A stretch of 64,000 nucleotides of DNA from Psammoneis japonica (lineage: Eukaryota), in contig QPGO01000025.1 of assembly GCA_008632985.1 (NCBI GenBank), positions 496,001 to 560,000 on the forward strand, written 5' to 3'. The position numbers and the translations under genes are program-made. Of the stretch, positions 2,824-40,450 are shown one piece after another. The notes below the pieces were generated by a model. The model saw only the letters and a program-made list of their open reading frames with translations. It did no database searches and had not been told where the DNA came from. The number at the start of each line of letters is the position of its first letter. Positions within the stretch are counted from its first letter, which is position 1.

Positions 2824-3064
2824 AGCAGCTTCATACTCTACATGATGTTTCCCTATTCGACAGAGCTTTGTCGTTCGTAGACTTCCACGTTTCCCACGTT
2901 GATCAATCTCCCATCAAAGTCAGCGAAAGGTGCACCGCATGCTAGCAGCTTCATACTCTACATGAAGTTTCCCTAGTCGACAGAGCTTTGTCGTTCGTAG
3001 ACTTCCACGTTTCCCACGTTGATCAATCTCCCATCAAAGTCAGCGAAAGGTGCACCGCATGCTA
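2824..3064. repeat. 120-bp tandem duplication of the 3' end and 3' UTR of the FG-GAP gene
   Basis: 2824-2943 and 2944-3063 are identical except at 2846/2966 and 2856/2976. Confidence 0.95.
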
Positions 3065-8393: not shown

Positions 8394-8492
8394 TCTTTTC
8401 AATTTGATATGGCAATCGGGAAAAGAGAATAATGTACTCTAGTTGTTATCATTGTATTTCTTCTTGTCTAAAATGTCAATGTAGCGTGGAGC

Positions 8493-11364: not shown

Positions 11365-14300
11365 TCATGGTAAACATGACGTACAACAGTTGACAGGACA
11401 GACAATGTCACAATCTACCACCAATGACGTGAGATCTACCGCTCGTAGCTCGCAGATTTCACTCGGCATGCTGCCAGTTAAGAGATTATCCTCCAGCAAT
11501 AGCTCTTCCAGACTTTCGATGAGCCCCAGCTCAGACGGGATCGCCAACTCCAACTAAGGCAGCGAAAAGAGAAAAGATTGTTAGGCACGCCCATAAATAT
11601 TGGATTCCATACGTGCCGAGCGCACTAAAACTACTCACGAGATTGCTCTTGAGCGAAAGAGATTCGAGAAAGCCTAGGTTCCCCAGTTCAGTGGGGATGG
11701 TACTTGCAAGGCTGTTGTTGCCCAGGTTAACGAGCTGTAGAGAAGCCAAATCACCGAAGCCGGTTGGAATTGTACCATTCAACATGTTATCATCCAAGAA
11801 TAGGAAGGAAAGCGATTCCAAATTCTCAAACTCGTCCGGGATTTGACCGCCTAATCTGTTTCGGCGGCGTTGAACAACTCTAAACGAGAAAAGAGAGGGA
11901 GCGGCAGAGTTTGAGACGAACAATTTTTGGGCTCGTAGCATATTCAGTAGTCAAACTTATTTCTGTGGCTCATACCGAGGCGAGTTAATCGTCCTATTTC
12001 CGATGGCAGTGCTCCGTCAAGTCGGTTTGTAGCCATTGACAAGCTCAACAAATTGTCCAGATTTCCAAGCTCAGAAGGAAGCATTCCAGAAATGAAGTTT
12101 CGGTCCAGCACCAAGTCTGTGAGTAGTGTCAGAAGACCGATTTCGCTTGGCACTGTCTCAGACAAAAAGTTTCTACTCAAGAACAACGTCTGCATTTCTG
12201 GCATGTCAATCGATGGAGGAATAGACCCAGCAAGAATGTTGCTTGTAATGTTCATTACCCGAGCCTGCGGAAGCTGAAAGAGCGATACAGGGAAGGCTGG
12301 ACCGAGGTTATTTGAACTTATGTCGATAAGTTCAAGTGCAACAAGTGAACTGAAAATATCGGGCACGGGTCCTGAGAGTGAATTCGTAAAGATTTCGAGC
12401 TGTGTTAGGTTGACAAGGTTCTCAAATTCTTGTGGGATTCTGCCATCCAGAGAATTTTCGAACAAGGAAAGAACCTCTAAACACGGAAACGGCGACGCAA
12501 CTTTGAGATTCACAAAACGTCAAAGACACAACTGCGCCTTGCATAGTCTCTTACCAAGGCTCGTCAACAATCCCAACTCAGTGGGGATCGTGCCCTCGAA
12601 ACCATTTATGGCCAACCGGAGGATCACGAGATTTTCGAGCTGTGACAATTCTGTAGGTATTTGTCCATCGAGAAAATTTCGCGTCACGTCAAAGAGCTCT
12701 GCGCTTTCAAGGTTTCCAATTTCTAGAAAAGGGGAGCGGTAATGAAGTTTGAGATCTCACAAAACGTCACTAAACGACGACAAGACCGGTGTATTGTAGA
12801 ACCTTACCACTGGGGATTTCGCCGTTTAATTCATTAAAGAAAACAGTGAGATCAACAAGTTCCGAAAGCGCCCCAATTTCTGATGGTATGCCGCCATTCA
12901 GAAAATTTATAGACAAGTCTATAACGTCCAACGTTGTCATTCTTCCAATGTCTGTGATAATTGCGCCAATTAGGCTGTTTTGTGATAGGAGTAGCATATC
13001 GAGACTTGAAAGGCCACGAAGCTCACTGACAAGCGACCCTACCAGATCATTTTCAGTCAATTCAACCTCCAGAACAACGTCAGCATCACACGAAAGGCCA
13101 AACCACCCTGGCGCTCCAGCAGCGTCTGGGCAAACGCTAGCAGACGTATTCCATCCAGTGTTTTCAACCCAATTCGAGCCACTGGTGGCAAACCAAAACG
13201 TGTTGAGAGAATATCGCTGGATGATTTCCAGGTGATCATCTGGATTGTTTGGATCCAACTCTGGATTTGTAGCCAATAGGGACAAGAACGCCAAGTTTTG
13301 CGGTGTGCCAGGCGTTGTTAAGGATCCATCGTCTGTCAGAGTGATGGTGAGAAACTCCAACAGTGTGATTTCGCCCTGTGTGGGACTGGTAGTTGTCGTT
13401 GGAGAAGTAGTCGAGGAAGATGGTGATGGTTCTAATGTTGGCTCTACCGTTGGTACTATTGTGGGCGCTATCGTCGGACCAGCAGCCGGATTAACAGTGG
13501 TAGGAGCAATCGTTGGTTTTGCAGTAGGTGATGCTGTTGGACCAGGCACAGGACTTGCGGTGGTAGGAGCATTCGTCGGTTCCGCCGTTGGTATCGCAAC
13601 TGGTGGGCCAGACACCGGACTAGCAGTGGTAGGAGTAATCGTCGATGACGGCTCTGTTGGTTGTGATGTGGGTTCGGCCGTTGGCAGATCAGTCTCTGAC
13701 GGACCTGAAGTGAGCGAGGGCGACGTCGTCGCGGCTGGAGGGCTTGACGGCGTGCTCGGTGGTCCCGGTGAGGGCGAGATTGTCGGTCGCAAAAAGAAGT
13801 TGTTTGCGTTTCTTTCTAGAGGATCATGGTTGTGCCTTTCTGCCAGTGCTTCGGCACTCTCAGTCGCATTAAATTCGTCTTCTGTGGGCGCCGGACTGAT
13901 TGTATCTTGAACTGGCGCAACAGACGGGGGACTGGGAGATGCAACTGGTGGTGGGGTAACCGTAGGTGTGGACAAAGTGGGAGAACCCGTAGAAGATACA
14001 ACTGGTGGTGGGGTACCCGTAGGTGCAGACAAAGTGGGAGAACCTGTAGAAGGCACCACTGGTGGAGGGGTGCTGCCTGTCGGCGGAGAAACAGTTGGAG
14101 GGGTAACCGTAGGTGCAGACAAAGTGGGAGAACCCGTAGAAGATACAACTGGTGGTGGGGTACCCGTAGGTGCAGACAAAGTGGGAGAACCTGTAGAAGG
14201 CACAATTGGTGGAGGGGTGCTGCCTGTCGGCGAAGAAATAGTTGGAGACATGGTCTGTGGCTCGGTACCTACCGCTGACGGGGAGTCGCTGGGTGAGGCT

Positions 14301-21582: not shown

Positions 21583-22497
21583 ATGGCACCACCCCTCGCG
21601 GCACGTCTCTCGTACGACGATATCAAAGCCATGTCCTACGAGGACTTGCAAGGTCGTTGCCGTGATGCCAACCTCAAGACGACGGGCACGGCCGCCAAGT
21701 TGCGACAGCGTCTTGGTGCCTGGGCTCGCCAAGACAATGCCAAACGTCCCAGAAGTGATCCTGTCGATGACTTGACGTGTCCCATTACCATGGACGTTTT
21801 GTTTGACCCCGTCATGGCGATGGATGGACGGGTCTATGAACGCCAGGCTATTGAAAAGCACTTTGGCGGCGCTGCCCGCGCCAGATCACCCGTCACCAAC
21901 GCAAAGATCAACACAACATTGGTTCCTTCCCCTCAAATGCGGAGCCTCGTGGAATCCATGATTGAAAATGGAATGATTACTGGACAGTTGTTGGAAAATT
22001 GGAATGCCAAGAAAAAGGAAAAAGAAGAAATGGATGCCCTCATTGCCGAGGCGCAAGGAGGCGATGCTGACGCCATGTACCGTGTCGGGATGAATTACCA
22101 CCATGGATTATCTGGCTTTGAAGAGAACGAAAAACTTGGCTTTCAATGGGTCAAAGAAGCCCAACAAAAAGGCAACATGTCGGCCGACTACATGTTGGGG
22201 AATTTCTACCTTCATGGAACTGGCGTCGCTGTGAACAAAAAATTGGGACTCATGTATCTAGGATATGCAGCTGGCAAGGGATATAGAAAGGCGGCCATGG
22301 ACATGGGTGACATATTTTCCAAGGGAAAACACGGTGTGAAGCCATGCACCGAGACGGCCATTCACTGGTACGGGTCGGTATCGAATCATCGACGTGCTCG
22401 AAGACGTTTGCAAGATTTGGAACGAGAGGCACCTGCCTATTGTGTGGAAGCTTTGCGAGAATACTTGCAATTGTCGGATGAAAGTGAGGGTGCTTAG
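21583..22497 (+). CDS. SAP-like + U-box + Sel1-repeat protein
   Basis: MSYEDLQGRCRDANLKTTGTAAKLRQRL (SAP-like), LTCPITMDVLFDPVMAMDGRVYERQAI (U-box), GDADAMYRVG / YMLGNFYLHGTGV (Sel1). Confidence 0.85.
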   Translation: MAPPLAARLSYDDIKAMSYEDLQGRCRDANLKTTGTAAKLRQRLGAWARQDNAKRPRSDPVDDLTCPITMDVLFDPVMAMDGRVYERQAIEKHFGGAARARSPVTNAKINTTLVPSPQMRSLVESMIENGMITGQLLENWNAKKKEKEEMDALIAEAQGGDADAMYRVGMNYHHGLSGFEENEKLGFQWVKEAQQKGNMSADYMLGNFYLHGTGVAVNKKLGLMYLGYAAGKGYRKAAMDMGDIFSKGKHGVKPCTETAIHWYGSVSNHRRARRRLQDLEREAPAYCVEALREYLQLSDESEGA

Positions 22498-22599
22498 TTC
22501 CTTCAAAAAAGTAACCTAGTTTAGATGTGGTCTCTCGGTGTACCCTTATCTACACCCTTATCTACCGCTGTGTTCACTGATGCGCATGAAGATAATTTG

Positions 22600-23600
22600 C
22601 TGAACATGTTGCAACAGAAAATGGGGTTGTTGAAGGTGCCGTGCATGTGTTGTTCGTGCGCAAGATGAACCCGATGAGCTTGTGAATGAAGAGGATGAGC
22701 GCATGGATCAGTTGTCCATTGAAGGCTCAGCATTTGATGAGGACAATCACCAAGTTAGTCGTGATGTGTTGAACAGATGTCTTCTGAACGCACCTGGTTG
22801 GGCATGATTCAGGATTGTGATGTCGCCAAAAATGGAAAAGCTGCATTTTGGTCATTGGCAAATTGCTGCAATGGTGGAGGAGAGAGTTGAGCAAGAGGGC
22901 TGTGTTGGCAAAAAGTGTGATCAAGATTGCACATTGTGAGAATGAGAGAGCACACTCATTCAATGTGCCAACAAAGAAATTGAAAAAGCACTCACAACTT
23001 TGGACAAAGATCCAGATTTGAAATGCTCCAATCATCAGAAAATGGAAGTGCTCTTAAATTGCAGTTGTGCAGCAGACATGAATTGGTCACATCGAAAGCA
23101 GTGATCAGCCAGAGTTGCACCAGTGACATCAGCAGAGTGTGTGCTTGTTTCTCGGCTCAAGTTTCTCAATGCACAGGGACACACACAAATTGAAACTCGG
23201 CATCATTCAAAGTTCAAGATTTCTGAGATTTCTCAGTGGCAGACATGTTCATGGACATGGAGGACAAGGACATGCGGGGGGTGGCAGAGGACAATGTGGT
23301 CATGGGATTGATGACAGCCATGGAGAGGAACTTGGTTGTGGTTGTCTTGGATGATGTGATGGTGTTCATGGACACAATGTCAAAAAAAAACTGCAATGTG
23401 AAATAAAAAAATGTGGAGCAACAGCCACATGGACATTGCCATGTCATGGTGAGCAAGAAGCACAGCACTGACCACAGCTGACTCATTTTTAATTTTTTGA
23501 TGACATCCATGCACTGCATCATCATGCATCATCTGACAACAATGGGCAACACAACATCATGCCAGAGCACAATGAACAACAAAAGAACACAACAAAGACA
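22600..23600 (+). mobile_element. Degraded diatom Ty1/copia-like gag fragment
   Basis: Broken reading GSAFDEDNHQV..PGWA(W)IQDCDVAKNGKAAFWSLANCCNGGGE..LSKRAVLAK..ENER..KALTTLDKDPDLKCSNHQKMEVLL followed by a Gly-rich tract. Resembles diatom copia gag (recognised from memory, not searched). Confidence 0.6.
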
Positions 23601-23629
23601 ACAGTGCTGGAGACTTTTGCACAAGGTTA

Positions 23630-24200
23630 GAGTGACGTGCACAGATGATGCAATCCCACATTGTCTCAAGCAGCACACAGCCAACTGCAGCTGATTTCAC
23701 ATCTTGCAAAGTTCTAAAAATGATTTTTGGTTTGTTGACACATGGCAGCAGCAGCAGCACACATCTCTTGAGCAACACAACAATGATGTTAGAGCAACAA
23801 AGCAAAGAACAAAAGAAAGATGAAGACAATGACACTGGAGACTTCAGCACAGCACACAGCATTTGCGTGTGATGAAACAAAGAGAGGTTTGCTTCAACAA
23901 AGCCTGTGATGGTGTTCTTTGCATGCTGCAGTGTTTTCATTTTGACACATGGGCAACAATGGATGCGCACCACATTGCAGTGCAGGTGGGCATCAATCAA
24001 GAGTTGCTCCATGATGAAAGACGCTCTAAATCCAGATCTTTGTGAGAGAGGCAGTGACAAGGTCCTTTTGCAGAAAAATGTGCCTTGTGTGGGAGATCTC
24101 TGCCCAAAACAAAGATTTTCTGATTCACTTTGAAAGAGTCCTTGCTGCAGGCTGGACAAAGCCATCACCAATGGAAGTGCATTTGGGGCAAAAATGGGCC
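23630..24200. pseudogene. Module copy 1: upstream region and 5' end of the MYND-SET gene joined by a deletion to the spacer and SNF2 3' end
   Basis: 23630-23710 resembles 25566-25650; 23780-23892 resembles 25780-25885; 23899-24180 resembles 26845-27110. Confidence 0.8.
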
Positions 24201-25079
24201 ATCTTGGCAAGCCAGGATGCAGCTTTTGCTTGCCCATGAGCAGAGACAAAAGGTTTCAGCACAGCAAGGCTGAGCAACATTGTTGTTGTCTCTGCCAACA
24301 TGTCTGCTTGACAAGCAAACATGTGCCACAGGCCATGGAAAGGAGCTGGTGTCCTTGCTGTGTCATCTTGTTCTTTTTTTGCAGCAAGAAATCTCACACT
24401 CTCCCTCAGGAGAGAAGAAGTCAGTCTAAACAACTGAGGCAGAAAAGCCAAAACAGAGCATCTTGTTGTCCATGCTGCACGCTGTCATCCTCTGTGTGGT
24501 GATGCATGATGAAACTTCAAGAGAGTGTGCCCCCTTTGTCTTCTGTGTGAATCCTTGCATCCTGAGTGGTTGTGACCTCAGCAAATGTGCTGGTGTGTCA
24601 GCTCATCCAACTGCAATTTTCCATGCTGCAATCCCTTGGTGTGATCATCTGTGTCACACCCCCTTGCCCTTCAACCTTCAACTGGTTTTCCATGTCAAGC
24701 CCCCACCCAGAAACATGCCTGCTGCTGGTGACTTTGTTGCTGGCTGGATTGGACCCAGAAACTCTCAAGCAGTTTGTGCCAAAGCCTTTGCTGCTGCAAT
24801 GCATCCAACACATCCCCCAATCTTCTCCAATGCCTGTTTGTGCTGGGAAGCATCTTTCCCATGGTGTTTGTCTGGGAAGCTCTCTGTTGAACAACCAGTG
24901 TCAGCAAGTTGACACTCACCACGTCTGCCACAGCACATTGCTGCATCATCATCCTAAAGCTGTTGACTCCATTGTGAGCACTCCCTTTGTGATCAACTTG
25001 TCTTGTTGTCTGCTTTGGAGTTCAGCGGTCAAATCAAGATGCCCAACAGCCCAAGTGCTGAGCTAGACAAAGATCATTG

Positions 25080-25560
25080 TGCCAAGACCACCCAAGACCA
25101 CATCAAGATGCATGGACAAAAAACCTCCCACTCATCTCAAGAACTTTGATGATTGAAGAGTTGTGTGTTTTCTTGACTGTCGTCTTCATGCCCCTTTGCA
25201 GCAAAGGATCTTGAAAAGGAGTTTCTCACTTGCCTTCTCACAGCCACTGGAGATGAGGCTTTTGTGATGAGCACGAGATTGACGATGTTGGTCTTTCTCA
25301 GCTCTTCATGAAATTGTGAAAATCACAGAAATGTTTTGCAAAATGACCAAGGAGGTCAAGCTCAACCATGTGAGGAACTTCAAGGGCTTTCCATGATCTG
25401 TTTTGTTTGTGATGGCTCTGGACACATGCAACATGAGTGCTCCAGTTGACGTCAAGTCATCCAAGGAGAAGCCAGCTGCATTGCGTGGCCCCTCTGAACC
25501 CCCAATGAACTTGTTTTCTGCAGTGTGGTGCGGGGGTGTTGCAGGCACGCATCATCACCT
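25080..25560 (+). mobile_element. Degraded gag-like fragment with CCHC zinc knuckle
   Basis: 25399-25440 reads CFVCDGSGHMQHEC (CX2CX4HX4C) in TpA/CpG-poor sequence. Confidence 0.5.
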
Positions 25561-25786
25561 TTTGGAGTGACGTGCAGACGATGCCACGTCTTCATGATGG
25601 ATCGATCAGCACAACCGACTATGCCTGATTTCACACCTAGCTCGCAGAAAGATTCCAAAGAGAGCTTTTGATGTGGTAGGTAGCTTTCGACTTGCCATTG
25701 TAGATTGTAGAGGTACGCGGTATGTATGTGGCATTGGCCACGGATTGGCATCATTACTCATCAATGCATGTACTGTAAGCAACAAC

Positions 25787-26772
25787 ATGTCAGAGCAAAA
25801 CAAGGAACAAAAGCAAAATGAAGAAAATGGTACTGGAGACTTCTGCAAAGCATGCGGCATCTATGTGATGAAGCCAAAGGTTTGCTCTTCGTGTCGGATC
25901 GCCAAGTACTGCTCCAAGGAGTGTCAGCTGGAGTGTTGGAAGGAAAAGGGCCATTCCTTCTTGTGCTCGTTGCAAGTCCATATTCAGAACTGCAAAGGTG
26001 CAGGGTTTGGAGTAGTTGCATTGAAAGATATTGCCGTGGGAGAAGAAGTACTCTGCGAAAAACCTCTCGTGAGGTTTGACGAGGGCGAAGATTTGAATGA
26101 AAAGCTTACCGCCAAAAAGAGACGACTGCTGTGGCAGATGCATGATGCATTCAACTACGACGGGAAGAAGTCCATCGGAGGTATTGCTCGTACCAATGGG
26201 CTACCCACAAGCGAGAGTCAAGGATTGTTTCTTTTGGCATTAATCATGCATGCAATGGGGCTCAGAATGCTCGGTACATTTGGAGGGCGGATCTAAACAA
26301 AATGATGGTCCGCGCGATTCGTCCCATTCGAAAAGGACAGGAAGTGACCGTATGCTACATTGATCCGTTCCTACCCAAGTCTGAACGACAGAAAAAGCTG
26401 TCGGACGGCTTTCATTTTGTGTGCGCCTGCTCCGAGTGTACCACCAACTGGACCGAGCTTAGAGACAAAAAGCTGGATACAATTCGACAGACGATTCAAG
26501 ACGTTGTTCCCATTGCTCAGTTCCAGCCTCGGAGAGCCTTGCATCTTTGCGAGCAGCTTTTGAAAATTTTGGAAATCGAGAACTTGAATACACCCATGGA
26601 CCGCGGTACCATACACTTTGATGCATTTCAGATTGCCGCCAGGGCCAGTGACCGTGCCAAAATGAGCTTTCACATCAAAAAAGCTCACGAGGCCTGGCTT
26701 CAGACGGATGGTGAAGGATCCGAGAGTGAATTGCAAGGGAGAATCTTGATAGAGAAGTGGTGCAGTGACTAG
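25787..26772 (+). pseudogene. MYND zinc finger + SET domain (SMYD-like) gene with a 7-nt deletion in the RINH motif
   Basis: CKAC..CSSCRIAKYCSKECQLECWK..H..C (MYND); GAGFGVVALKDI, NHAC, VRAIRPIRKGQEVTVCYI, FVCACSEC (SET/post-SET). Frame changes near 26240. Confidence 0.85.
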
Positions 26773-26844
26773 TCGAGCGACGAGTCGTTGTCAGGTGGCG
26801 TGAGATAGATAAGATGCCGTTTCCAAAAAGATAGATTCACGTTC

Positions 26845-27170
26845 AAAGCCTATGGTGTATATACTACATCGTTTTCATTATGACACATCTTCCTTACGAA
26901 GTGGGCAACAATGGATGCATCACGTTCCAACACAGGTGGTGTTCAACCGAGAGTCACTCCATGACGAAAAACACTCCAAATCCATCTCGTGGGGAAATGA
27001 TCATGTACGAAAGCGCGTGGACTCTAAAACAAAAAGACTTTCTGATTCCCTTTGTTGAAAGAATCTTCATTGTAGCAGGTGGGACAAAGCCGTCGGCAAT
27101 GAAAATGCGCCCAGCCTCAATCTTGGATAGAACTTTTATGATGTTTGACTCAATGACAAGAAAGCCAAAG
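26845..27170. repeat. Module copy 2: spacer and SNF2 3'-end relic (not TpA-depleted)
   Basis: Aligns with 33766-34105, e.g. gcaggtgggacaaagccgtcggcaatg occurs in both. Confidence 0.85.
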
Positions 27171-27229
27171 GGTTTTCTTGCTTCAACAAGAAAGCCTCCG
27201 TTCCACTCCCCCCTTTTACACCCTACTAC

Positions 27230-27630
27230 AGAGCAGTGTTTTCATTGTGACACATCTTTGTTGCAAAGTGCATGACAATGGATGCACCACATTCCAGTGC
27301 AGATGGCAATCAATCGTCAAGAGTTGTTTCTGATGAAAAACACTCCAAACCCATCTTGTGGGAGAGCACAGTCCCACCCTGGTGAACTGGATTGAGCAAA
27401 TTCTCTCTTTCAAAAGAATGCGACAAGCTCTTTTGTCCAAAACAAAGATTTTCTGGTTTTCTTTGGTCAAAAGAATGTCACTGCAGTGGGTGGGACAAAG
27501 CTGTTGACAATGGAAGTGCACCCAGCCTCAATTTTGGAACACAGTTTGTCAGTGTTGACTCAACAGAATTGTTGCTTGGCCACAGACTTCCTCTTTGCAC
27601 ACAAGGCAGCTTTCTCATTTTTCCAGGTGG
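27230..27630. repeat. Module copy 3: spacer and SNF2 3'-end relic (TpA- and CpG-depleted)
   Basis: acaatggatgcacc..., caaaacaaagattttctg and gtgggacaaagctgttgacaatggaagtgcacccagcctcaat match copies 1, 2 and 4. Confidence 0.8.
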
Positions 27631-30210
27631 TGGGGGTGCAACATGTCACCTGGACTTCTGTGTGCAGTGGACAGTTGCAGCCAACACCACAGTTGATGTG
27701 ACCAAATGAAAAATGAGTGCGTGTCAACAAGCAAAATGCATGTTTCCAGTTTCTATGATGACTGGCTGGGCTTTGCTGTCAGAGGCTGGGGCTTTGCCAA
27801 AAAGACTGAGTGCCAAAACAATGGCATGCCATTGAAAAAAATGTTGTGCTGTGATCTCTAAAAAGCAGTTGAAACCAATGCAAATCCAGCTGTGTCAATG
27901 GAAGACCCAAAGTGGACCTTTCTTGTGTGGCAACACTTCACAAAGAAAGGCTTTGGTGGGAGCCCTTGGCTCAAAGAGAAGAAAATTTGGCTGTGTGTCA
28001 TTTGCAGCCATTGTGGAACCCAACTGCTGCATTGTGTGCCACCCAAATGTTGCCCCCTTGCGTCATTGCCCTTGCATGCCAAATGAAGGAAGAGAACACA
28101 TTTGGGTGCCACATGTGTGTCTTGGCATTTGGACTCTGTCTCAAGAAACCATGTTAAAAAAACTGGGTGAGAGACTGTGCTCTCACCTGCTGAAAGCAAA
28201 GTGGCATCTCTGCACATGACCATGCAAGCCCAAAGAGTCGCAATGTTGGACAATTCAGTGATGGTCTTGCTGTTGCTGTCTCCATGTGTGGGTGCATTCG
28301 CCACTGATGACAGCTTCCTCTTTGCAAAGCTGGTGGCAATTTTGTGTCCCAAAGGAGTGCCAAAAGTGCAAAAACATGAGAGAGTTTTTGACCATGCCTG
28401 CAGAGTTAGAGGGGCTTCTGTGGAAATTGACAAGCAGCAGCTCAAATCTCTTGCAATTGCTGTCACACTGCAGTGGCCATTTGGCACAAAATGAGTCATC
28501 TTGGTGAGCAAGAATGTGGCTGCTGCTTGCCCATGAAAAATTGATTTTAGCACAGCGGCGCTGAACAATGCTGTGTTGATGGCTGCCAACAACCCCCCCC
28601 CTTCTTGGCAAGCGAGTGCCATGCCAAAGACACATGGAAAATAGAAACAGCTCTTGCTGGCTCCTTTCACATCATTTGCAGCAGACCCCACACTCTGGGG
28701 GCTCAAAAGACCAAAAGTCAATCCAAACAAACTGCAAAGAAAGAAAGCCACCCTGGGCATGCAAACCATGCAAGAGGCTTTTGGGAAATTTTGATTTTGT
28801 TTGGTCCTTTTGGTTTCTCAATCCCACACCACACAAAATCTGCTCCTGCTCTTTTGCCCATCATTTTGGCAAATGTGTGTTTCTTCTCAATTGTGGTGCA
28901 AGCAACAACAAGGAGAGATGGGAGCTCTTCTCTCCCAGGTCACATCGTTTGATCTTTCGAACAATGGCAGGTGCTTTTGCACCATCACATTGCCTGTGGT
29001 GCCCAAGTGTCTTTCATGGTTTGACTGCAGGTCGTGCTTGTTGGACATGCACATGCAACAAAAACCAGAGAGTGACCCCCAACCCTGTCACACACCTCAT
29101 TTTTCACCACCCCAAGGTGGTGCAGAGCTCATGTTGTGCACTGACCAACCATTGACTCTCAAGACAACACTGGGATTTGCCAACAGGTTCTCTCATGCTT
29201 TGCTTTCAATGGTCATTTTGTGTTGTTCCTGACTCTGTGTTGTTTCTTTGTGTTGCATCAAAGCAAGCTCATCTGCTGAGTTGCGCGCACATGGGGCATT
29301 TTGCTCTTGATGTGCGACTGATGGCAAACATGACTTGCCACACATTGAGACCATTTCCTGTGGATCAAACCCCTCTCCACTTCATTCAGTCCCTTGTCAG
29401 TGTTGAGAAACTTGACAATGTCCAATGGCCACCACGAAGTGGTGGCACTGAGCATCTCCCAGCTGTCCACTTTGTCCTCCTCCACACTCCATCATTGCTT
29501 GGGATGTTTTTGTCCTGTGTCCATTTTCATGATTTGTTGCTGAAAGTTGCAAGCCAGGAGTGGGCAGAGCATTTGCGTTGGCATCTGCAGAGCAATGAGC
29601 ATCATGGTGCAACAGTGATGCTGCAAATCTTGCCCAACATTGTGTTGCAATGCTTGTTGGTCAGCTTGCCACAGATGGTGATGCTTGCTTGTGCTGTGGC
29701 AAGAGTGCAACATCAGTCAAAGACTGCAACTGCTGGCTTTGCCCGCAACAACAAGAGGTTGTTCTGACAATGAATTGGAACACAACAACAAAAAAAGCTC
29801 ACTGCAGCAAAATTGCTCTATCTGGGCACCCTTTAGAGAACCACACAGTTGGAGCACAGTGCATGCTCTCGCATCATCCCCATTGCCGTCATGTCGTCGA
29901 CCAGCAGCGTTAAATCTGCCATCTGACCATTCTCAGCATTTCCCACTCGCACTTCAGACCAAGATCATGTCATTCTTACATCGGCAGCGACCTGGCTGAT
30001 GTGACACCGGTACAATTCAATAAAAAATACAAACCTGTTCCGCCAATAGTCAAAGGATAAATGATACGGTACGCCATACGAATGCTGCTACACTACTAAA
30101 GCATGATTCTATGCCGACCCACATGAAGGAAGATTGCAATGGCTGCTAAAACACTGGAGTGATCAAGTTTCCTGTAGAGTAAATCAGTCCAAGACAGACA
30201 CACCCAATTA

Positions 30211-32174
30211 TTACGGCCTGCATGTTTTATTTTTTCCAGATCCCCTGCATTTGTTGCTGCAGCATTGGCGGCGCCTGCGGCAAGAGGCGCCATCTGGCAA
30301 AAGCGAACAGGTGGGCTCAGTCGTAATCGTGCACGTCAGCGTGAGATCGGAGAATGCCAAATAAGCCTTGACAGCCAAAAAGAGTTCAGCGTCACTGGGA
30401 ACAGGACCTGTGGAGCACTGTTCATTCGAGTCGTTGCCGATCGAAGCGCACTCGTTCACGCTGGTCGATGGGATTTCTGGTAGGTTACCGAAACGCGTGT
30501 ATAGGTCCGCGTCACCATTTCCTCCAGCAGTGCTGCAGGTAACCACATCTCCCGCGGACACGCTGAGCTTGAAGTACAGAATCGAATCCTTGTTTAACGA
30601 CAGACCCGTCACTGGGACACCGTCTGTCAAGGTAGTTGGCTCTTGCGGAGGTTCCGGAGGGTCCACTCCGACAGCCGCCCAAGCGTCACCAACATTGGTT
30701 TCATAACCGGACGGACTGGCCATTTGGATGGTACATTCCCGGGCGTGCTGGAAATCCGAGGAAGGGGTCATGCAATTCACGTTGGCTTGATAGAAGATTT
30801 CTGCCGCAGCTTCGAAATCAATGCCCTGGACATTCACACTGGTCTTTCCTTGCGGGTGTGTGCCACCAGTGACAAGGAGCTTGAAAGCAAGGTTGGCAAT
30901 GCCAGAGTTCCAGTGGACACCACCGTTGTCGCTAGAGCCAGTGTATCGAGTAGGGTAGTAGTCGTAGTCGCCCGCTGATGCAGGATCTGCCATATCGCGT
31001 AAACCATCACCCGGCGTGTTGGGTGTGTAAATGTCTTCACCAATGAGCCAAATGTCATCACCAGTGGCTCCATTGAATCGATCCACCATGGCACCAAAGA
31101 TATCTGACATTGCCTCGTTGAGTGCGCCCGACTCATAGCTGTAAATCAGGTTTGATTCACGCTCGGTGATGCCGTGAGTCAGCTCGTGGGCCACAACATC
31201 AGCATCACGGCTAAGTTCGATGAAAGTGCTCCCATCACCATCTCCGTAGGTCATCTGGCTGCCGTCCCAGAAGGCGTTGTTGTAGTTAGTGCCGTAGTGG
31301 ACCCTCGAAACAAGCGTCATGCCGTTGTCGTCGATCGAGTCACGGTCGTGTTTCTGGAAGAAGTAATTATACGTGTCGATCGCGTAGTTGTGGGCTGCCT
31401 CGAGCGCTAAGTCACCAGTACCGCTGATCTTGCTGTTGGGATTGGAGTAGATGGAGATGGGGCAATTGCTTGTGGATTGATTGCAATCGCGCGTTTCCAT
31501 AGAAAGAGCATGCCTGAAGAGAGGAAAGCGAGCTACGAGGTTGCCCGTCTGCGAGTCGGCAAAGATCTCGTCGCGATGCGGACGAACCACTCCTTTGAAC
31601 TCAGCCTTGTAGTCGACAACAACCTTCCAGGCGAGGTATCCATAGCCATCTTCACCGCGTACGACGACGAGTTCGGGTTCGGTGAACCAAGAGTCGATCG
31701 CCTGGCCAAATTGACCAATGGCGGTGTCGAGGGCCTCCTGCGCATCCAAGATCGGCTCTGTAGGAACATCGCCCTTGATGAACTCGCCGTTGATGGCGAA
31801 AATGGTGCCGTCTGGCTGTGCGTGCAACATGAGGGAGGCGCCCGCCACAGTCATGCCGTTGACTTCTTCCGTGAAGCGGATGTGGATCCCATCCTTCTTG
31901 TCTTTGCCGATCTTCTTGACAGTAACTTCCTCGTTGCCAATAGCCTTGAAATGAGCCTTGAGGACGTCCTTGAGGATCTTCTTGGCGGATTCTTCATAGC
32001 GTTTTCGTCGGCCTTGTTGAGCAGGCCAAAGTTACCCTTGACGACGGAAGGGCCTTTCAGCTTCTTGTTCTTATCCGGCACAAGCACTCGGGGCTGGGGG
32101 TCTCCTAATCGCTGTCCAAAAGAGCCGAATGGGGCCAAGAGGCCCATGGTCAAGGCGAGTGTTGCGAAGCGCAT
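30211..32174 (-). CDS. Secreted M4 (thermolysin-like) zinc metalloprotease with propeptide, PPC domain and Cys-rich tail; apparent 1-nt frameshift near 32003
   Basis: Signal peptide MRFATLALTMG; NAFWDG, VVAHELTHG, GALNEAMSD, DNGGVHWNSG; GNGDADLY (PPC). Confidence 0.92.
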
Positions 32175-33139
32175 CGTTACTCTCTGTTGAATGTTGAGCG
32201 TTGATGGTTGATGTTTTGTGCATTTATTGTGATTGATGACCGCAAAAGATACTTCCGAGGGAAAGATTTCCTTCCCTCGTAGCTCTACGTACATACCGGT
32301 ACACTTGTATTGGCAAGATGTCGTTATTTATGCCTGATGTCCAAAATGAGAACCGTGCGTGAGTGAAACACGTTATTTGCATCTCTGTACATAAATATGT
32401 ATTAAATGAAAATTCGAAAAGTTACTATCGTCAAAGTGGTGTAATGGCATAAGTCTTCTTTGGAAGAACACCGGCGGAGTCTAAATAATTTGATCGTGGA
32501 ACATTTAAAAACATTTAAAGGAGACTTTTAAAAAAAAATAGAGTGAATATGAATTATTAGAACGTACGTGTATTGTACTAATGCATCAAAAGGTCAATGT
32601 TTTTTGCAGTCACTTTTTGAAATTCAAAATAGAAGTACCAAAACCCAAAACATGACACACAGTACATTCATAAAGCACTGAACGGGGATGATCGGGGCCG
32701 GCCCTGTATTGTTTTTCTCACCAGTTTCGAAGTTGAAGTGTGTTGGCCAGTGAACAAATGCAACCTGCTCTCGAAGACCAGTGTTGCAGTGCAGCAGCAC
32801 TGCGACCATCTGCTGTGTGCTCCGTGTTGCTCATCTGATTGAATGAAATGGTGCACACGAGGCTTTCAAGATGAACATGAGTGGCTCCGAGTGCTTCTTG
32901 CTTGGCAGCCCATCTGAGAAACATTGCCAAATTTGGAAGTGCGCAAAGAAGTGACGAGAGCATGTCGGCTGCGTTTTGTTGATGTTGTGGATTCCGCAAT
33001 GCTGCGGACGTCCGCAACGTTGTGGGTTGTGGATGTCATGGAAACCTTCCTTTGAGGATGAGGTTTCTCAAACATTGCAAGAAGCAACTGCAAGATGATG
33101 TTAACTTTGGCCGCACAGCACAGCTTGCAAAGTCTCCGA

Positions 33140-33715
33140 CCATGGCGAAGATTTGAATGGAAAAGTCGCTGCCCAAAAGAGACCGCTGCTGTGACAGATG
33201 CATGACGCTTTCAGCTACGATGGGAAGAATGCCATCAGAGGCATCGCTCGTGCCAATGGGATGCCCACAAGCGACAGTCAAGGATTGTTTCTTTTGGCAT
33301 TCCGCATCAATCATGCTTGCAATGGGGGTCAGAATTCAGAGTGCTCGGTGCATTTGGAGAGCGGACGCCATTCGAAAAGGACATGAAGTGGCAGCATGGT
33401 ACATTGAAGAACATTGATCCGTTCCTGCCCAAGTGTGAACGACAGAGAAAGCTGTCGGATGTCTTTGACTTTGTGCGCGCATGCTCCAAGTGTGCCAGCA
33501 ACTGGAGCGAGCTTCGAGACAGAAAGCTGGGTGCGATTCGACAGACGATTCCAGACGTTGTTCCCATTGCTCAGTTCCAACCTCGGAGAGCCTTAGATCT
33601 TTGCGAGCAGCTTGGAAAATTTTGGAAATCGAAAACTTGAATGCTCCCATGGACCGTTGCACCACACACGTTGGTGCGTTTCAGATTGCCGCCTGGGCCA
33701 GTGACCGTGCAGTGA
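33140..33715 (+). pseudogene. Module copy 4: hypermutated SET-domain gene fragment
   Basis: Colinear with 26080-26660; retains FRINHAC; has indels and TA->TG/CA changes. Confidence 0.9.
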
Positions 33716-33978
33716 GTCTTTGTCAGGTGACGTGAGATGGATACGATGCCGCTTAAATTCAGATTCAAAGCCCAGGGTGTTTTCACTGCATCATTTTCAC
33801 CATGTGACTCATCTTCACTGCCGTGCGAACCGGGTGACAACGGATGCATCACGTTCCAACACAGGTTGCGATCAAGTGTCGCTCCTCACAAAAAAAGATT
33901 CCAGATCTGTCTCATGGGAGAGCAATCTTGTACGAAAGCGCGTGGACTCTGACGCAAGAACAATTGACGAGTTCTTAT

Positions 33979-36404
33979 CTAAAGCAAAGACGTTCGGATT
34001 CCCTTTGAAAGAATCCTCACTGCAGCAGGTGGGACAAAGCCGTCGGCAATGGAAATGCGTCCAGCTTCAATCTCGGAGTGCAGTTTGACAATGTTTGACT
34101 CAATGGAATTGTTGAACACAAACCTCTTCACTTGCACCGCTTTCGTTTGTCCAAGGCGGTGGATGCGACCTGCCGCCTGGACTTCCGCAGCAGGATCGAT
34201 GCACAGCTCGAGAAGATGCACAATCGATGCTGCAGTCAACGTGACTAAATGGCAGAACAAATGTGTGAGGTCGAGAAGGCAGAAGACAATTCTCGAGTGA
34301 AGACACCACTGCTTGCTTCCAATGTTGCCAGCCTTCAGCGTAATGACAAAGACTGCTGGTGTGGGATCACTTTCATTTTGGAACTTCCGGATGGCCTCAT
34401 CTCGGGCAGGACCACTTGTTGATCTGGTGAACTGGCACAACCAGTCCTTGGTTCTTGAGTGCTTCGATCACTGCCAAGTGCTGACGAGTGTGCTGCGTAA
34501 AAACAACAGCACGGAGCTTGGGTTGAGAACGGCGCATGAGCTGCAGATCATCCAGAAGAGCCTTGGTCTTGGTGACGGCGTGGTCAGCGAACGTCATGCG
34601 AAACAGAAAGCACTGCTCAAGAGCAAACATTTTGGCTCCTTCTTGTTCGTGATGACGAATGACCTCGCGGGCTTGCTGGCTTTTCCAAACATCTCTCTCT
34701 CGACCGGTGACATGTCGACGTGTGAGGTGGTCAAGGTGGACGCAGGGAGAACCAAAGCTTCCGATTCTCGGATGCGTTGCTTTTTCGTGTGACGAATCAT
34801 GACACGCTTTAACTGTTCAAGAAGGGCATCGAAACTCTCCTTCTTCTTATGAGGCAAGGCTGATTCAAAATTCCGAATCAACCTTGAAGGCACCGCATCG
34901 TAGTTTTCTGAAAAGCAGAGCTGAGAGTCAAGCTCACAAATGGACGAAGTGAACGGAGTCGCTGTCACACACCACCCAGTCTCTGAACGAATCAATCCTG
35001 CCTCATGCCGCTTTGCTGACGAACCGTTTGTTGCAAACAGATGACTCTCGTCGGCAACAACCCGGTGGAACTCAAAGTTGTCGATGATGCTTGGTTTCCA
35101 TGTGAAGGTGGAAGTGGAAATGATGACATCTAAATCCACTGGCTGGCGTGGATCGAATTTTCTCTGGTTTCCGTGGTGCCTTGCAACGCGGAGATTTGGA
35201 GCATGCTTCTTGCATTCGTCGAGCCACTGGCCAACCAATGAAACGGATGTTAACACCACTGCAGTCTTGACTGGAACCCTCTCCCACGTCCTGACTGTTT
35301 CCTTCCATTCCCTCCATTTCTTTCTGTCAAAGTCTGGGTCTCCGCCATCACGAAAGTGGCTTGGTCGAGAGAGCTCCTTGGACCTGTGGTCAAGTCGATG
35401 AGGCAGCTTCTCCCAGTCTCGCAGTTTCTCTCCAATCAGGGACAAAGTCGGCAGTCTTTTCGGTGCCATGGGATTGGAGGCAACAAGAGCAAGAACAACG
35501 GCAGACTTGCCCATTCCAACCTCATCGCACAGGAAGCCCCCCTTGGTCTTGCCACCAGCAGAAATCTCACAGATCTTCCACGTCTGGCATGAATGCCAGG
35601 CTCTGACGTTGGCAGTGGCGAAGGCTCGTGGAAAAGAGGTTTGCAGGAGGAACCTTTTCGACAGGGTGCACCTGAGTCGCGGCGTCCAGCAACTTCCGAA
35701 TCGAGAACTCATCTCTGGCGGTGCGGTTGTTGCGGTTGTTGAATGACCAAGGGTTGAGGGTCCTGGCAATGGCAGCCTCAGCTTGCAGTGGAGGTCCACG
35801 ATCATTTCTGCACATTTCTTCATGCTTGCGTCTCCACTGATCATCGCTGCACTTGGCATGGCAGTGCTCCTTCCACGAGGTGCAAGCAGAGGCCAAAATG
35901 TCACACACGCAGCAAAAACAGTTTGCGCAGTGCTTTGAGGGATCGACGTTGTGAGGGTGGACAACGCAGTTCTCACGGGAGTGGGGAAAGTCAATGAGAG
36001 CAAAATGACCTGTCGTTCCAACCACAGTCACCTCTTCATCGTCCTTCTTCTCCTCGTCATCAGCAGAAAACAACTGGGCCGTGGCAGACTTGACTCAAGA
36101 AGCAGAGACCTCATGAACATCGTCGTTGTTGTTGTCAGACGAAACTTCTTCTGCGTCTTCTTCGCTCGTCGAAGCACTTGTGGTCGAACAACAGAGGATT
36201 GGCACTCGCCACTGCTTGTTCTCCGGGTGTCGTGACTGGAAGCATCACCTTCTCGCCATCGGGACAACCCACCGATGCGCCACCAAGTGTGTTCTCGGTC
36301 TTGACTCGCTTTGAAGTTACTTTCGGTGTCGCTGCGGCGGCTGGCCTCTTTCCGCCCGCGTCATCATCATCTGAAGACACCAGATCAATCACGTTCGTCG
36401 ACAT
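33979..36404 (-). pseudogene. SNF2-family (Rad5/Rad16-like) helicase pseudogene with N-terminal Cys/His domain; intron relic 34245-34316
   Basis: DFPHSRENC..CANCFCCVCD..HCHA, GGFLCDEVGMGKS, SLVGQWLDECKKHAP, VVADESH, WCVTATP, MIRHTK, EVQAAGRIHRLGQTK, split over several frames. Confidence 0.88.
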
Positions 36405-36699
36405 GCTGTGTGGATGAGGCTATGAGATTTCAAGTGCAGTGAGCATTCAACGACAAGAAGCAACGAAACGACTCAGCCGTCAGCCTCATCGACATTGCAC
36501 TTGCACATTGTGAACTGCCGACTGCCGAGACGCGCCGCCGCCTGCTCTGTGCGAAAGACGCGCGAAAGATTTGCCCATCTTTTTTTGGCGCGCACCCCCC
36601 CTCCCTTCGTTGTTTCTAGAATGGCCCATTTGGACAAAGAGACCTGTTTCGCAAAGCCAGAAAAGAACACTGAAGGCTCACATTTTCCGGTCCAGCCAG

Positions 36700-38465
36700 C
36701 ATCCACCGGTGAGAAAAACAAGCAATGCTGAGAAAAGCTTTTTGTACACACCAGCAACATCAATGACAAAACAACTGGTGGGTTGGCTGCTTCAAGGTCA
36801 GCCACGTCTTTTTGTGTCGCAGCAACAAAGCCAGCAGCTCTCCACATCCCCTCCTTTTCTCTTCAAAAGCAAGTCATGTCAACAGGCTGCTGGCAGAGGA
36901 GTGCTTTCAAAAGTGCAAGGCCTCTTGGTGCTTCGCAAGTCACAACTTTCCTCACTCCGGTCAGGGGCCCTCTGCATGCACCCCCCAAAACACAGCTCCA
37001 TGCAGACACCACACGCCACACAGCAAATCAGCACAGGAGGGTTTCATTTTGGAGACAACATCCTGGTGAGGAAACCATTGCTCTCACATTTCTTTTAGAA
37101 ACAAGCCTGGGAGCATGCTGTGCACATGAAGAGCAACATTTTTAACCTCTGCAGTGGCAGGCCACCACACCAGCACACATCATCTGCGGTGCCAACAGCC
37201 CATGGGTTCAACCACCTGCCACAAGCTGGGAATTTCCTGACTGCAATCCCAGAAAAGTGCTGCTCAACAAGTTGGGTGATCACTTTCATTGAAGTTCAGA
37301 ACCAACTGAGTTTGTGGGCCCCTTGAAGCAAGATTGTGCCCCGCTTTTGTTGCAGCTCTTGTTGCCTCTGACCTCAAAGTCAATCTTGTTTTTTTTTGTT
37401 CTGTTTTTGTTCCTGATGCATTTTCTGTGGTGACTTTGCCTGATTTGTCATTGTGCATTTTGTTGTTGTTCATAGTTGGCTGACATGCAGAGCACACCAA
37501 AAGTTGAGGCAGCAGCAATGTGAGAGAGATTTGTTCCACTTGGACAAGAACAGATGTGGGAAGCATTCTGGGGGTTCTCAGCTGTTGTTTGAAGCAATGT
37601 GGGTGCTTTTGAACTTCTCAACAAAGTGATGCTGTGTGGCACAGTGTTGTGCCAAGAACATCACAACCAACTGTGCCACGCTGCAAGAAAAAATGGCCCA
37701 AGTGCAAAAAAAAAAACCAGTTTGGGCTGGAGCCACCACCCACAACAAAACTGGGCCTGGCACATGCTTGGACTGTTCCTTGGCACATTGTTGCTTGTGG
37801 CAGTGACAATGATGAGGAGCACATCATGGTGCCTTGGCTTTGACAGTGCTCCATCACCTCTGTGCCCCCCCCCCCAGAAGCTGCTGTCTGTTCAATCAGG
37901 AAAGTTTTGACTGACCCAGAAGAGATTGCACTCAGATGACACAGAGAACGGGTGTTTCACAGCTTCAAATGGCACATCAATGGCAGTGGCTGCTGCTGCT
38001 GCTGCTGCCGCTGTGTTTCAATGTCTTTTTGTCTCACTCTCCTGTCTTTCTCCCAACCCTGCTTGCTCTCAGGTTTGAGGAATTGTTTTGCCCTTGCTCT
38101 CAATTTGCTTCTGTTGAACCATTTGACTTCTCAAAGCAGCTGTGTGTCTCTAAAGAAGAAAAGGTGGAGAAAGCACAGATGGAGGTGGCATCACATGGGT
38201 GCCACTGCTCTTGTCTGAAAACTGTTTCAAAGCTGTCTTCTTTGTGACCACAAAAACTGCTTGAGCCATCACTCAACCACCCTTCAAGCAGGAACCCACC
38301 ATCCAATGCACTCCAGCAGGAGAGATTCTGGCTGTAAAAAACAGGATGGGGTGTGTGGCTGTTTTTGTTGGAATTTGCTGCAAAGCAACAGCAGCAGTTG
38401 CTTTTTTGAAATGCCCACATGACCAATGGATTGGAAAGATCTTTTTGAAACAGAAAGCAGCAAGA

Positions 38466-38497
<32 letters not shown>

Positions 38498-40450
38498 GGC
38501 AAGAGAGAGCTCTTTGCTTGCAAAAATGTGCAAAGAAATCCTGAGTGCACCAGTTCTCTTCTTGTTGAGCTTGGAGACCTTGGACAACTCCCGTTGGTGG
38601 CACTCCTTTCTCATGCTGCATGCTGACAACAGGCTGTGCACTTGCTCTCTGCTTGACCTGGGGCAACTCCCCTTTGGAGGCATTCCTTCATGCTGCACGC
38701 TGACAACAGGTGGTGTTTTCAACCCCAAGCAGCTGACCAACAAAACAACAGCAGCATGGCTCCTCTGCCATTTCTGCAACAGTGATCAACTCCTTGCTTG
38801 TTTCAAGAAAGAGTGCACAGTTCAAAGAACCAAGTTGTTGGTGCACACTTGGACAACTGCTGCTTTTCAACCAAGCCAAACAGAAAACCTTGGAGCTCAG
38901 AAACACACCTCTGAGATTGACCAATTCGAGCATGACATCCTTGGGAGCCCTTTCAAACAATGAAAGAATCCACTCAATCATCACAGACAAATGTGTCATT
39001 GTCATGCTCATGCTGCCCCTCTTGTGCTTTTGATCAATCTTTTCATGTGATTTTTTTGTGTGGCTTTCGATGCACAGAAGAACATCAATTTGCAAGCACT
39101 GCATTTTTGTCAAATTTCCCATCTTTTTCTTTTTTGTCAAATTTTTTGACCAGAATGAGAACAAAACGGCAAGTCATGAATGGGGCACATCATGACACCG
39201 GGCAGAGGTCAAGGGTGGCCAGGAAGTGGGGGTTGTTTCATGTGGAACAGAGTTTGCAGCCAGCACCATGCACCATGCAGACTTGCCATGTGCCTGTCAA
39301 TGGATTGCAGCTGTGGAAATTGGCTGCAAAGGAAGCAGTGCCCCACTGGAAGCACCGCGCAGCTGAAAATGAATCTGCAGAGAATTGTTCAATGATGGTG
39401 CTTCTGGTGGGGCTGCTTTGCCAGTTGGCAGCATTTGGCATCACATGGCCCTTGTCTGAGCCACCCAATCTCTGTGTTTGCATCACCATGCTTTGCACAA
39501 GTGCAGCTGCACTCTTTTTGCAGATGTTGTTCTTCAAGGTTGCCATGGCAAAATTCCCAGTTTGGGCAGCAGAGTTGTTCCAGAATGAACTCCAGTTCCT
39601 CATCACATTTGTTTGCAGCTGGTGCAACCACACAATGTGGTTGTGGTGCTTTAGAATGTGCCGCAGGCTTTGAAGAATGTCTTTGGGCAAGTCATCTTCT
39701 GCTTGTTCTGAGGTCAAATGCAGAGACCATCTTTTTGCTCTGGCATTGGAGCATGTGCTTTGAAAGCCTTGTGGACAATCTTTTTGCTCTGATGGCAGAG
39801 AGGGCCAAGCCACTCTCACAATCAATCCACACATTTTGAGGGTGCTTGGTTGAGGGCAAAAGAGAGTTGTTGAATCACACTGCTCTCCAGCTGTCACTGC
39901 AGCTGCCAAAACATTGCTGACACCAGCTTCCTCATCATCTGAGCACTCCTCCTCTTCATCCAACAAGGTGGGTTCATGCTCACAGGCTCAAGTTGTTGCC
40001 TTGTGTGCTCCTCTTCATCCACAAGGTGTGTTCAAACCCACACTCTCAAATCTTGCCATCCAAAGTGAAGCATCGCTGCAGCTCCAGCCAGCCTCACAAG
40101 CAAAAAGCTTGTGCCCTCTGCTTGGCTCTTGAGGACATTTCCGTGCTCCTTCCCCCACTTCCCTTAGAAGCACCTTGGTCACAGCAAGGATTGCTGGAGC
40201 CCCACTTGCTTCTTCCTTCTTTTTCTTCTTTTTGCAATGTGCGCGGCGCCTTCAAGCTGACACAACCTTTTTTCTTGCGCACTTTCTCAGGTCCTGTTCT
40301 CTCAATTTGGCAGGCCCTCCACTTCCTTGAGCACTCGGTCAACATCTTTGGCATTGTTGATGCACAGCAATTTTTCTTTTGACAGTTGTTTGTGAATAAT
40401 TTGTTGCTTGAAAGTGTGGAAATGCGACATTTTTCAAGTTGTCAACACGC
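36700..40450. other. Heavily degraded TpA- and CpG-depleted relic, family unassigned
   Basis: TG/CA-rich, Tyr-free overlapping ORFs, (CT)n at about 38473-38497, and a ~40-bp direct repeat at 38595-38635 / 38673-38713. Confidence 0.55.

Follow-up and report, generated by a model that had tools for sequence, protein, structure and literature searches.

Of 231 mutations in the integrated giant-virus and virophage regions of mutation-accumulation lines of the alga Bigelowiella natans, 230 were reported to lie at TpA and to be either A to G or T to C (Mettrop et al., bioRxiv 10.64898/2026.01.13.699255, April 2026). The TpA mutation rate was given as about 1000 times the baseline, in only some of the lines, and the genome as containing 124 clusters poor in TpA and rich in CpA and TpG; an ADAT2-like DNA adenine deaminase was proposed (bioRxiv 10.64898/2026.01.13.699255). 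The main text of that preprint has 0 occurrences of flanking bases, context or CpG, and its supplements could hold them (bioRxiv 10.64898/2026.01.13.699255). Repeat-induced point mutation (RIP), as described in fungi, converts C to T, chiefly at CpA, and thereby generates TpA (PMC2621366). This study focused on a 64,000-nucleotide stretch of Psammoneis japonica DNA (contig QPGO01000025.1, positions 496,001 to 560,000, forward strand; hereafter the window), in which blocks of sequence have lost nearly all of their TpA. The change runs from TA to TG or CA, is specific to TpA, follows a flanking-base rule, affects both strands, stops at sharp borders and is separable from a loss of CpG. The favoured reading, given a probability of about 0.7, is that the blocks are silent, decaying nuclear DNA in which nearly every TpA has undergone an A:T to G:C transition through a targeted process at the DNA level, the chemistry presumably being adenine deamination as a genome defence.

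Between positions 22620 and 25560 (2,941 b) there are 11 TpA, whereas the TpA rate outside the blocks of the window predicts 108.6 (Poisson P = 5e-33). Observed/expected ratios were 0.05 for TA, 0.17 for CG, 1.90 for TG and 1.85 for CA, the other 12 dinucleotides lying between 0.75 and 1.23. A preliminary description of this DNA had named seven surviving sites, TTAG 22755, TTAA 23054, ATAA 23403, TTAG 23627, CTAA 23714, CTAA 24026 and CTAG 25063, and had held that survivors are nearly all YTAR (Y, pyrimidine; R, purine) with no TAC or TAT. All seven are correct, and four more were located, every one YTAR (TTAA with its TA at 23490, TTAG 23790, CTAA 24427 and CTAA 24955), so that the interval holds 10 YTAR, one ATAA and no TAY. 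The excess of YTAR gave a binomial p of 9e-8 against the background share (258/1642), and of 8e-6 against a flat 0.25.

The interval lies in one of four sharp-edged TpA-poor stretches (B1; B2; B3, 32710-40550; B4, 49750-55830), which were divided into six sub-blocks totalling 19,519 b, with 44,481 b as background:

Block B1, 22600-25610, no strand: TpA and CpG both nearly lost, from TA and CG positions and the dinucleotide table; holds 22620-25560.
Block B2, 27230-29815, no strand: TpA and CpG depleted; repeat families D1 and D3.
Block B3a, 32710-36750, no strand: TpA depleted, CpG normal.
Block B3b, 36751-40550, no strand: continuous with B3a; CpG lost as well as TpA.
Block B4a, 49750-53420, no strand: TpA depleted, CpG normal.
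Block B4b, 53421-55830, no strand: TpA and CpG depleted.

Their edges are sharp to about 100 b and they are set between normal genes, forming discrete regions as in the B. natans process. In all of them TpA is almost gone and TG plus CA are roughly doubled, with the following observed/expected ratios:

Background: TA 0.56, CG 0.98, TG 1.15, CA 1.13.
TA-only blocks (B3a, B4a): TA 0.12, CG 0.84, TG 1.43, CA 1.39.
TA+CG blocks (B1, B2, B3b, B4b): TA 0.03, CG 0.16, TG 1.83, CA 1.82.

Falls are seen only in TA and CG and rises only in TG and CA; no other dinucleotide shifts by more than about 0.3. AA, CA and GA are undepleted and the loss is specific to TpA, so a T stands immediately 5' of the changed A, as with enzymes of the TadA/ADAT type.

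The direction of the change was read from paralogues. Parts of B1, B2 and B3a have a paralogue of normal composition at 25611-27229, where a SMYD-like gene is followed by its 3' flank. This region served as an internal control, with the gene as the unmutated comparator aligned to the block copies. The features concerned are:

SMYD-like gene, 25673-26772, plus strand: zf-MYND E 4.6e-6 and a weak SET match, E 0.0017 (Pfam); normal composition, with 15-17 TA per 500 b as in the background.
SNF2-family C-terminus remnant of 37 residues, 27044-27154, minus strand: tblastn with P0003, P0004 and P0006, E 1e-4 to 1e-6; in normal-composition DNA adjoining B2.
SMYD-like pseudogene fragment in B3a, 33138-34105, plus strand: DNA similarity to the normal-composition region.
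Frameshifted SNF2/Helicase_C pseudogene in B3a, 33997-36151, minus strand: SNF2-rel_dom E 1.4e-24; tblastn E 1.6e-121.
PIF/Harbinger-like DDE transposase remnant in B4a, 52098-52706, plus strand: DDE_Tnp_1 E 6e-5.

In eight alignments, the 35 ungapped TA sites of the normal copy faced TG in 13 cases, CA in 11, TA in four and other dinucleotides in seven. The reverse change, TA in the block, occurred at 1 of 110 TG and 2 of 128 CA sites of the normal copy. The loss is a directional change of TA to TG or CA (24/35 aligned sites, against 3/238 in reverse), giving the same products at TpA as in B. natans. Coding remnants carry the same mark: the SNF2 reading frame of B3a has one Tyr in 477 residues and, in the DDE remnant, two of the four columns with Tyr in 50 relatives read TGC (Cys), with nearly all residues of other classes conserved. 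TpA loss has spared the active-looking SMYD paralogue, which has 80% identity to the B3a copy.

Some viruses avoid both TA and CG, and the blocks might be foreign or specialised DNA that always did so, with no mutation involved. This is scarcely credible, as block DNA is paralogous to normal DNA with TA facing TG or CA at the sites just described, Tyr has given way to Cys (TGC) at conserved columns, and doubled exchanges between TG and CA separate copies. The paralogue alignments exclude native avoidance for the alignable parts of the blocks, and it could hold only for the unalignable remainder.

B1 spans the gap from a U-box/Sel1 open reading frame (ORF; end 22497) to the SMYD-like gene (start 25673) and carries a copy of the region 25610-27130 that has decayed and suffered internal deletion, recognised by collinear direct-repeat families (D2, D4-D8 and D10). 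The start of B2 is a mutated tandem copy of 26871-27127, and DNA of B3a matches 26078-27155 at 79.6% and 72%. An exhaustive search returned 3,066 relatives of the DDE remnant at E<=0.001, with DDE_Tnp_4 in two of ten tested; a word-indexed search for longer relatives of its ORF found none. No Pfam match was obtained among the stop-to-stop ORFs of the TA+CG sub-blocks (0/80), made up of 15 of at least 70 residues in B1, 21 in B2, 28 in B3b and 16 in B4b, and these sub-blocks are without a recognisable coding remnant. No convincing terminal repeats, either long terminal repeats or terminal inverted repeats, were seen at the block ends. B2 might be the body of the SNF2 copy with its C-terminal remnant at 27044-27154, but its 319-residue ORF (27861-28817) is without similarity to P0003 or P0001 (E 0.45 and 5.5), and a tblastn search for an SNF2 copy in 27230-29815 gave no match.

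Two local irregularities touch these features. B4 contains a near-normal TpA island of 779 b (52251-53029), with 23 TA per kb compared with 37 in the background and about 3 in blocks, which overlaps the 3' two-thirds of the DDE remnant and the sequence downstream, and its mix of TA contexts is background-like. At 26236, contigs of runs X1 and X2 both have seven extra bases, as does the B3a paralogue (a gap after about 26241 in the normal copy), so that the SMYD-like gene may be divided between two ORFs (25673-26296 and 26302-26772) through an assembly or allele difference.

Both strands are affected equally. B1 holds 355 TG and 345 CA, interspersed, and strand runs gave z values of -2.5 to +0.8 in blocks compared with -1.2 +/- 0.85 in background, that is, no strand-coordinated clustering of TG and CA in blocks beyond the background. 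As TG and CA are about equal and interspersed, both strands must have been changed in many independent events. The targets reach beyond retroelements, to a dead SNF2 gene copy, a SMYD-like fragment and the DDE remnant, and this, together with the balance of TG and CA, indicates that the process acts on DNA. The preliminary description had named restriction to one strand of retroelements as a finding that would speak against its proposal; no such restriction was seen, with TG and CA near parity and dead cellular genes and a DNA-transposon remnant hit. Only one identifiable target, the Harbinger-like remnant, is of a foreign or mobile type, the others being dead SNF2- and SMYD-type gene copies. 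Contigs of run X1 cover B1 and B2 at flank depth (55-65), making them single-copy now, while parts of B3a are deeper (71-174). The process appears to track a silenced domain rather than present-day repetition. X1 word depth was about 930 at 40386-41000, just outside the right edge of B3, about 174 at 35948-36581 and about 60 elsewhere, the deeper parts being repeated in the genome.

Across the six sub-blocks 82 TpA remain, 39 of them YTAR, compared with 1,642 in the background, and estimated survival was 0.34 for YTAR, 0.034 for RTAY, 0.085 for YTAY and 0.095 for RTAR (chi-square p = 1.3e-13). With the island at 52251-53029 excluded (18 TpA), 36 of 64 survivors are YTAR and the survival values become 0.33, 0.02, 0.054 and 0.071 in the same order; where saturation is greatest, in the TA+CG sub-blocks, YTAR makes up 21 of the 28 survivors and RTAY is absent. 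Comparing the NTAN contexts between blocks and genes had been suggested as a check of the proposed preference, and their depletion relative to the background is unequal, with YTAR surviving at 0.34 against 0.034 for RTAY. YTAR is itself cut about threefold, so that the preference is relative, as had been supposed. An A two bases downstream of the surviving TA occurs in 52% of cases, compared with 26% in the background.

Survivors alone cannot separate a 3'-pyrimidine from a 5'-purine preference, because YTAR is unfavourable under both. The products differ: if the process targets adenines that precede a pyrimidine, YTAY becomes YTGY and RTAR becomes RCAR, while under the opposite rule YTAY becomes YCAY. 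This product test used the TA-only blocks, which are free of interference from CpG decay; there TGY/RCA exceeded the background by 201 and TGR/YCA by 57. The predicted proportions are 203:27 under the 3'-pyrimidine rule, 139:92 with no preference and 74:156 under the opposite rule. The ratio (TGY+RCA)/(TGR+YCA) was 1.29-1.34 in five of six sub-blocks, compared with 0.72-1.24 in 14 background chunks. Product contexts therefore favour an adenine with a 3' pyrimidine, bearing out the earlier suggestion that TAY is the preferred target. A Poisson survival model put the cumulative per-strand loss (h) at 2.12 before a pyrimidine and 0.57 before a purine, about 3.7-fold (likelihood-ratio p = 9e-15 against a uniform rate). 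Fitted by individual 3' base, h was 2.15 for T, 2.10 for C, 0.76 for G and 0.39 for A with the island excluded, and 2.14, 1.58, 0.76 and 0.36 with it kept. The rule is thus T and C far above G, and G above A, at +1; TACG is spared (8/113 kept, against 8/395 for other TAC, strand-wise; Fisher p = 0.016) and CTAG is not protected (4 seen against 15 expected at the resistance of TTAA and TTAG/CTAA; p = 8e-4).

Eighty environmental contigs encoding relatives of the DDE protein were tested for the flank rule, and only one (L052; 1,067 b, DDE relative of 51% identity) was strongly TA-depleted, with observed/expected values of 0.08 for TA, 0.82 for CG and 1.35 for TG+CA. Its surviving TA sites, ATAC, CTAT, CTAC, CTAA and TTAC, do not follow the YTAR pattern, five sites being far too few for a test. 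It is a possible second, independent case of the TpA signature.

ADARs favour a 3' G. ADAR-type editing of double-stranded RNA from repeats, returned to DNA by reverse transcription, would explain the T before the changed base, since a 5' U is favoured by ADARs according to the Discussion of the B. natans preprint, and repeat RNA is hyper-edited. Whole intergenic blocks are changed, however, up to the borders of genes and including a DNA-transposon remnant and dead cellular genes, TG equals CA without runs, and a 3' G is disfavoured (h 0.76, against about 2.1 for C and T). The view of the preliminary description, that the pattern fits a change of adenine on DNA better than editing of retro-RNA, is upheld by the missing strand coordination and 3' G preference. 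ADAR editing is close to refuted and is very improbable.

The preliminary description had also favoured a TadA/ADAT-like enzyme. The 5' T, shared by ADAR, and the loose preference for a 3' pyrimidine agree with this, and the finer motifs do not. The core motif of bacterial TadA is UACG, extended to YUACGAA (PMC11472039), and TACG is spared here. The one ADAT2 shown to edit DNA, that of amphioxus, acts at GAA and TCG in hairpin loops and prefers GAA (PMC10354150), and fungal Tad2/Tad3 mRNA editing prefers UAG (PMC11087585). A Pfam scan of the window ORFs found no deaminase domain among those scanned. Beyond the 5' T the analogy to TadA is weak and, with one defining motif failing, the assignment to a TadA/ADAT-like enzyme is not established. 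A labile modification of adenine, the alternative raised at the same time, may give the same sequence pattern as deamination.

The base that changes could in principle be the thymine. Modified thymines occur in several protist lineages, and in silenced chromatin a thymine modified at 5'-RTA-3', for instance to 5-hydroxymethyluracil or a J-like base, might be miscopied or misrepaired as C. TA is self-complementary, so every result above could equally be stated as T to C with a preference for a 5' purine. Such a route seems unlikely, as hydroxymethyluracil pairs with A and is not known for near-exclusive T to C change, and the B. natans authors favour adenine deamination, as a proposal.

Loss of CpG forms a separate layer. 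CpG is nearly gone in B1, B2, B3b (from about 36751) and B4b (from about 53421) and normal in B3a and B4a; CG observed/expected is 0.16 in the first four and 0.84, with TA at 0.12, in the other two. The drop from normal to near absent takes place within about 100 b, at 36700-36800 and 53400-53450, inside continuous TpA-poor blocks, and therefore the two losses have different domains and are separable. Surviving CG sites show no comparable flank bias (0.11-0.21). Among the aligned CG sites of the normal copy, 20 of 59 are TG or CA in block copies, which looks like decay of methylated CpG. Diatom transposable elements carry DNMT5-dependent CpG methylation (PMC9998398), and methylated-CpG decay of that kind would account for the change of CG to TG or CA in B1, B2, B3b and B4b. 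Unlike the process acting on TpA, such decay leaves TpA untouched, and it is missing from B3a and B4a, which still lost TpA. The CpG-poor parts, with no coding remnant, suggest DNA that is older or differently marked.

The blocks were also seen in the reads. Contigs of run X1 reproduce B1 and B2, at the depth given above, with 1, 9 and 8 other letters over 1.4, 4.3 and 4.2 kb. Differences between X1 and the window are transitions at 169 of 188 places (90%), and of 31 listed inside blocks, 21 interconvert TA, CG, TG and CA; six of these 21 are adjacent doubles between TG and CA, as expected if two copies or alleles resolved the same ancestral TA or CG independently. Within 22000-41000, contigs of run X2 were confined to DNA outside the blocks and run X3 gave none; no conclusion on expression is drawn from them. 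Long-read base-callers can miscall modified bases, and the blocks are where 5-methylcytosine is expected, so that heavily modified CpG and TpA bases in heterochromatin might have been systematically miscalled as TG and CA. Such an artefact is most improbable: X1 contigs at a depth of 55-65 match the blocks nearly letter for letter, block copies differ from their paralogues by frameshifting indels and by many substitutions other than those at TA, and the TA-only blocks keep normal CpG.

The most probable history, then, would be as follows. The blocks would hold dead host-type gene duplicates, a Harbinger-like transposon remnant and unidentifiable sequence. Each TA would become TG or CA depending on which strand's adenine changed, an adenine with a 3' pyrimidine (5'-TAY-3') being changed about 3.7 times more often per strand than one with a 3' purine. 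YTAR, above all TTAA and TTAG/CTAA, lasts longest because a purine stands 3' of the TA on both strands. In parts that are probably older, a second layer of ordinary methylated-CpG decay would have turned CG into TG or CA; since this decay also yields TG and CA, all pyrimidine-purine steps converge on those two. Chemically, an enzyme may deaminate adenine in DNA to hypoxanthine, with silenced chromatin as its target and defence of the genome as its role, and the process may be the same in kind as the TpA hypermutation seen in real time in B. natans. Biased repair or gene conversion specific to TA, in which a glycosylase or mismatch process resolves TpA damage toward G:C with no dedicated deaminase, would likewise yield non-clustered changes on both strands and could be confined to chromatin domains. 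It is judged improbable: no TA-specific repair pathway of such a kind is known to us, the near-complete loss (TA observed/expected 0.03-0.05) and sharp borders look like an active, targeted process, and the B. natans rate, about 1000 times the baseline and in bursts in some lines according to the preprint, is against it.

Several observations weigh against the deamination history. TA changes make up about 24 of the 237 substitutions between the aligned paralogues, so that much ordinary divergence is mixed in, and the four TA kept in aligned block copies are ATAA, CTAC (twice) and GTAC, none of them YTAR. Informative outcomes in mixed contexts in the direct alignments favour the 3'-pyrimidine rule by 8:3 only, and B3a, the least saturated sub-block, has a product ratio of 1.06, without asymmetry. 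The survival figures assume an original NTAN composition of the blocks like that of the coding-dense background; the tests against a flat 0.25 are free of this assumption. In the SNF2 pseudogene none of four majority-Tyr columns reads Cys or His (they read F, A, I and T), in the poorly aligned N-terminal part. Deamination of adenine at TAY and change of thymine at RTA on the other strand look alike in sequence. X1 may be the source data of the assembly, and so counters a consensus artefact without adding independent support. No viral hallmark was seen in the blocks, and the B. natans targets are viral.

Eukaryotic in character, the window is rich in genes, poor in introns and about 49% G+C. 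Its cystathionine beta-synthase shares 75-81% identity with proteins of diatoms (Thalassiosira profunda, Seminavis robusta, Mayamaea, Ditylum and others), the best named relative of the SNF2 pseudogene is also from T. profunda, and the window genes are closest to diatoms. Two genes for EMP70 (endomembrane protein 70), at 120-2175 and 6234-8395, lie 6 kb apart with 67-70% DNA identity and normal composition. Short tandem duplications occur in or beside long ORFs, at 2824-3064 (121-b unit, 98% identity) and 13937-14248 (unit of about 50-150 b, 72-94%). On the minus strand at 30211-31854, adjoining B2, is a bacterial-looking gene of normal composition for a thermolysin-type M4 peptidase with a bacterial pre-peptidase C-terminal domain.

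For annotation, blocks of this type pose two problems: similarity searches miss the dead genes and transposons in them, and, with two of the three stop codons erased, their DNA mimics open reading frames. A search of the full-text literature, with subscription journals and bioRxiv supplements outside it, found no report of TpA hypermutation in diatoms or of the flank rule. With the rule, candidate deaminases can be checked against a specific biochemical fingerprint, and a natural DNA adenine deaminase, if one is responsible, would be of interest as a base-editing tool.

Compared with known systems, the blocks resemble the products of fungal RIP in being transition hypermutation that ruins duplicated or mobile DNA within sharply bounded blocks. 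Unlike RIP, the process destroys TpA by A:T to G:C change (TA observed/expected 0.03-0.12, against 0.56 in the background), B1 and B2 are at single-copy depth, and an active-looking paralogue of 80% identity is untouched. ADAR hyper-editing shares the A to G change with a 5' U preference in repeats, but it acts on RNA and its 3' G preference is opposite to the one found here, where both strands of non-transcribed-looking DNA are affected up to gene borders. TadA, ADAT2-ADAT3 and the base editors derived from TadA share a target A preceded by U or T, and the 3' pyrimidine is shared with bacterial TadA; the UACG core is not reproduced, as TACG is spared relative to other TAC and TAT is lost as much as TAC.

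The closest likeness is to B. natans, with exclusive change of TpA to TpG or CpA, on both strands, in discrete genomic regions. The differences are that the window genes are diatom-like (stramenopile) and B. natans is a chlorarachniophyte (Rhizaria), that the targets there are giant-virus and virophage inserts and here dead gene duplicates, a Harbinger-like remnant and unidentified DNA, and that depletion is far deeper here (observed/expected 0.03-0.12, compared with a reported Rho of 0.45 in its viral region). TpA hypermutation has thus been described once already, in a rhizarian; the stramenopile case and the flank rule are new. Natural adenine-directed hypermutation of DNA had been known only from one 2026 preprint on a single alga, and a saturated signature in a stramenopile suggests that the system is old and widespread in the stramenopile, alveolate and rhizarian (SAR) lineages, or has arisen more than once. 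More tentatively, and with the odds somewhat against it, diatoms and chlorarachniophytes may share a dedicated, chromatin-directed defence that deaminates adenine at 5'-TAY-3' in duplex or transiently opened DNA. The flank rule would then be the fingerprint of the enzyme, and the enzyme a natural DNA adenine deaminase working in a double-strand context. Together with CpG methylation, this defence would drive every pyrimidine-purine step of silenced DNA to TG or CA, as a counterpart of RIP with the opposite chemistry.

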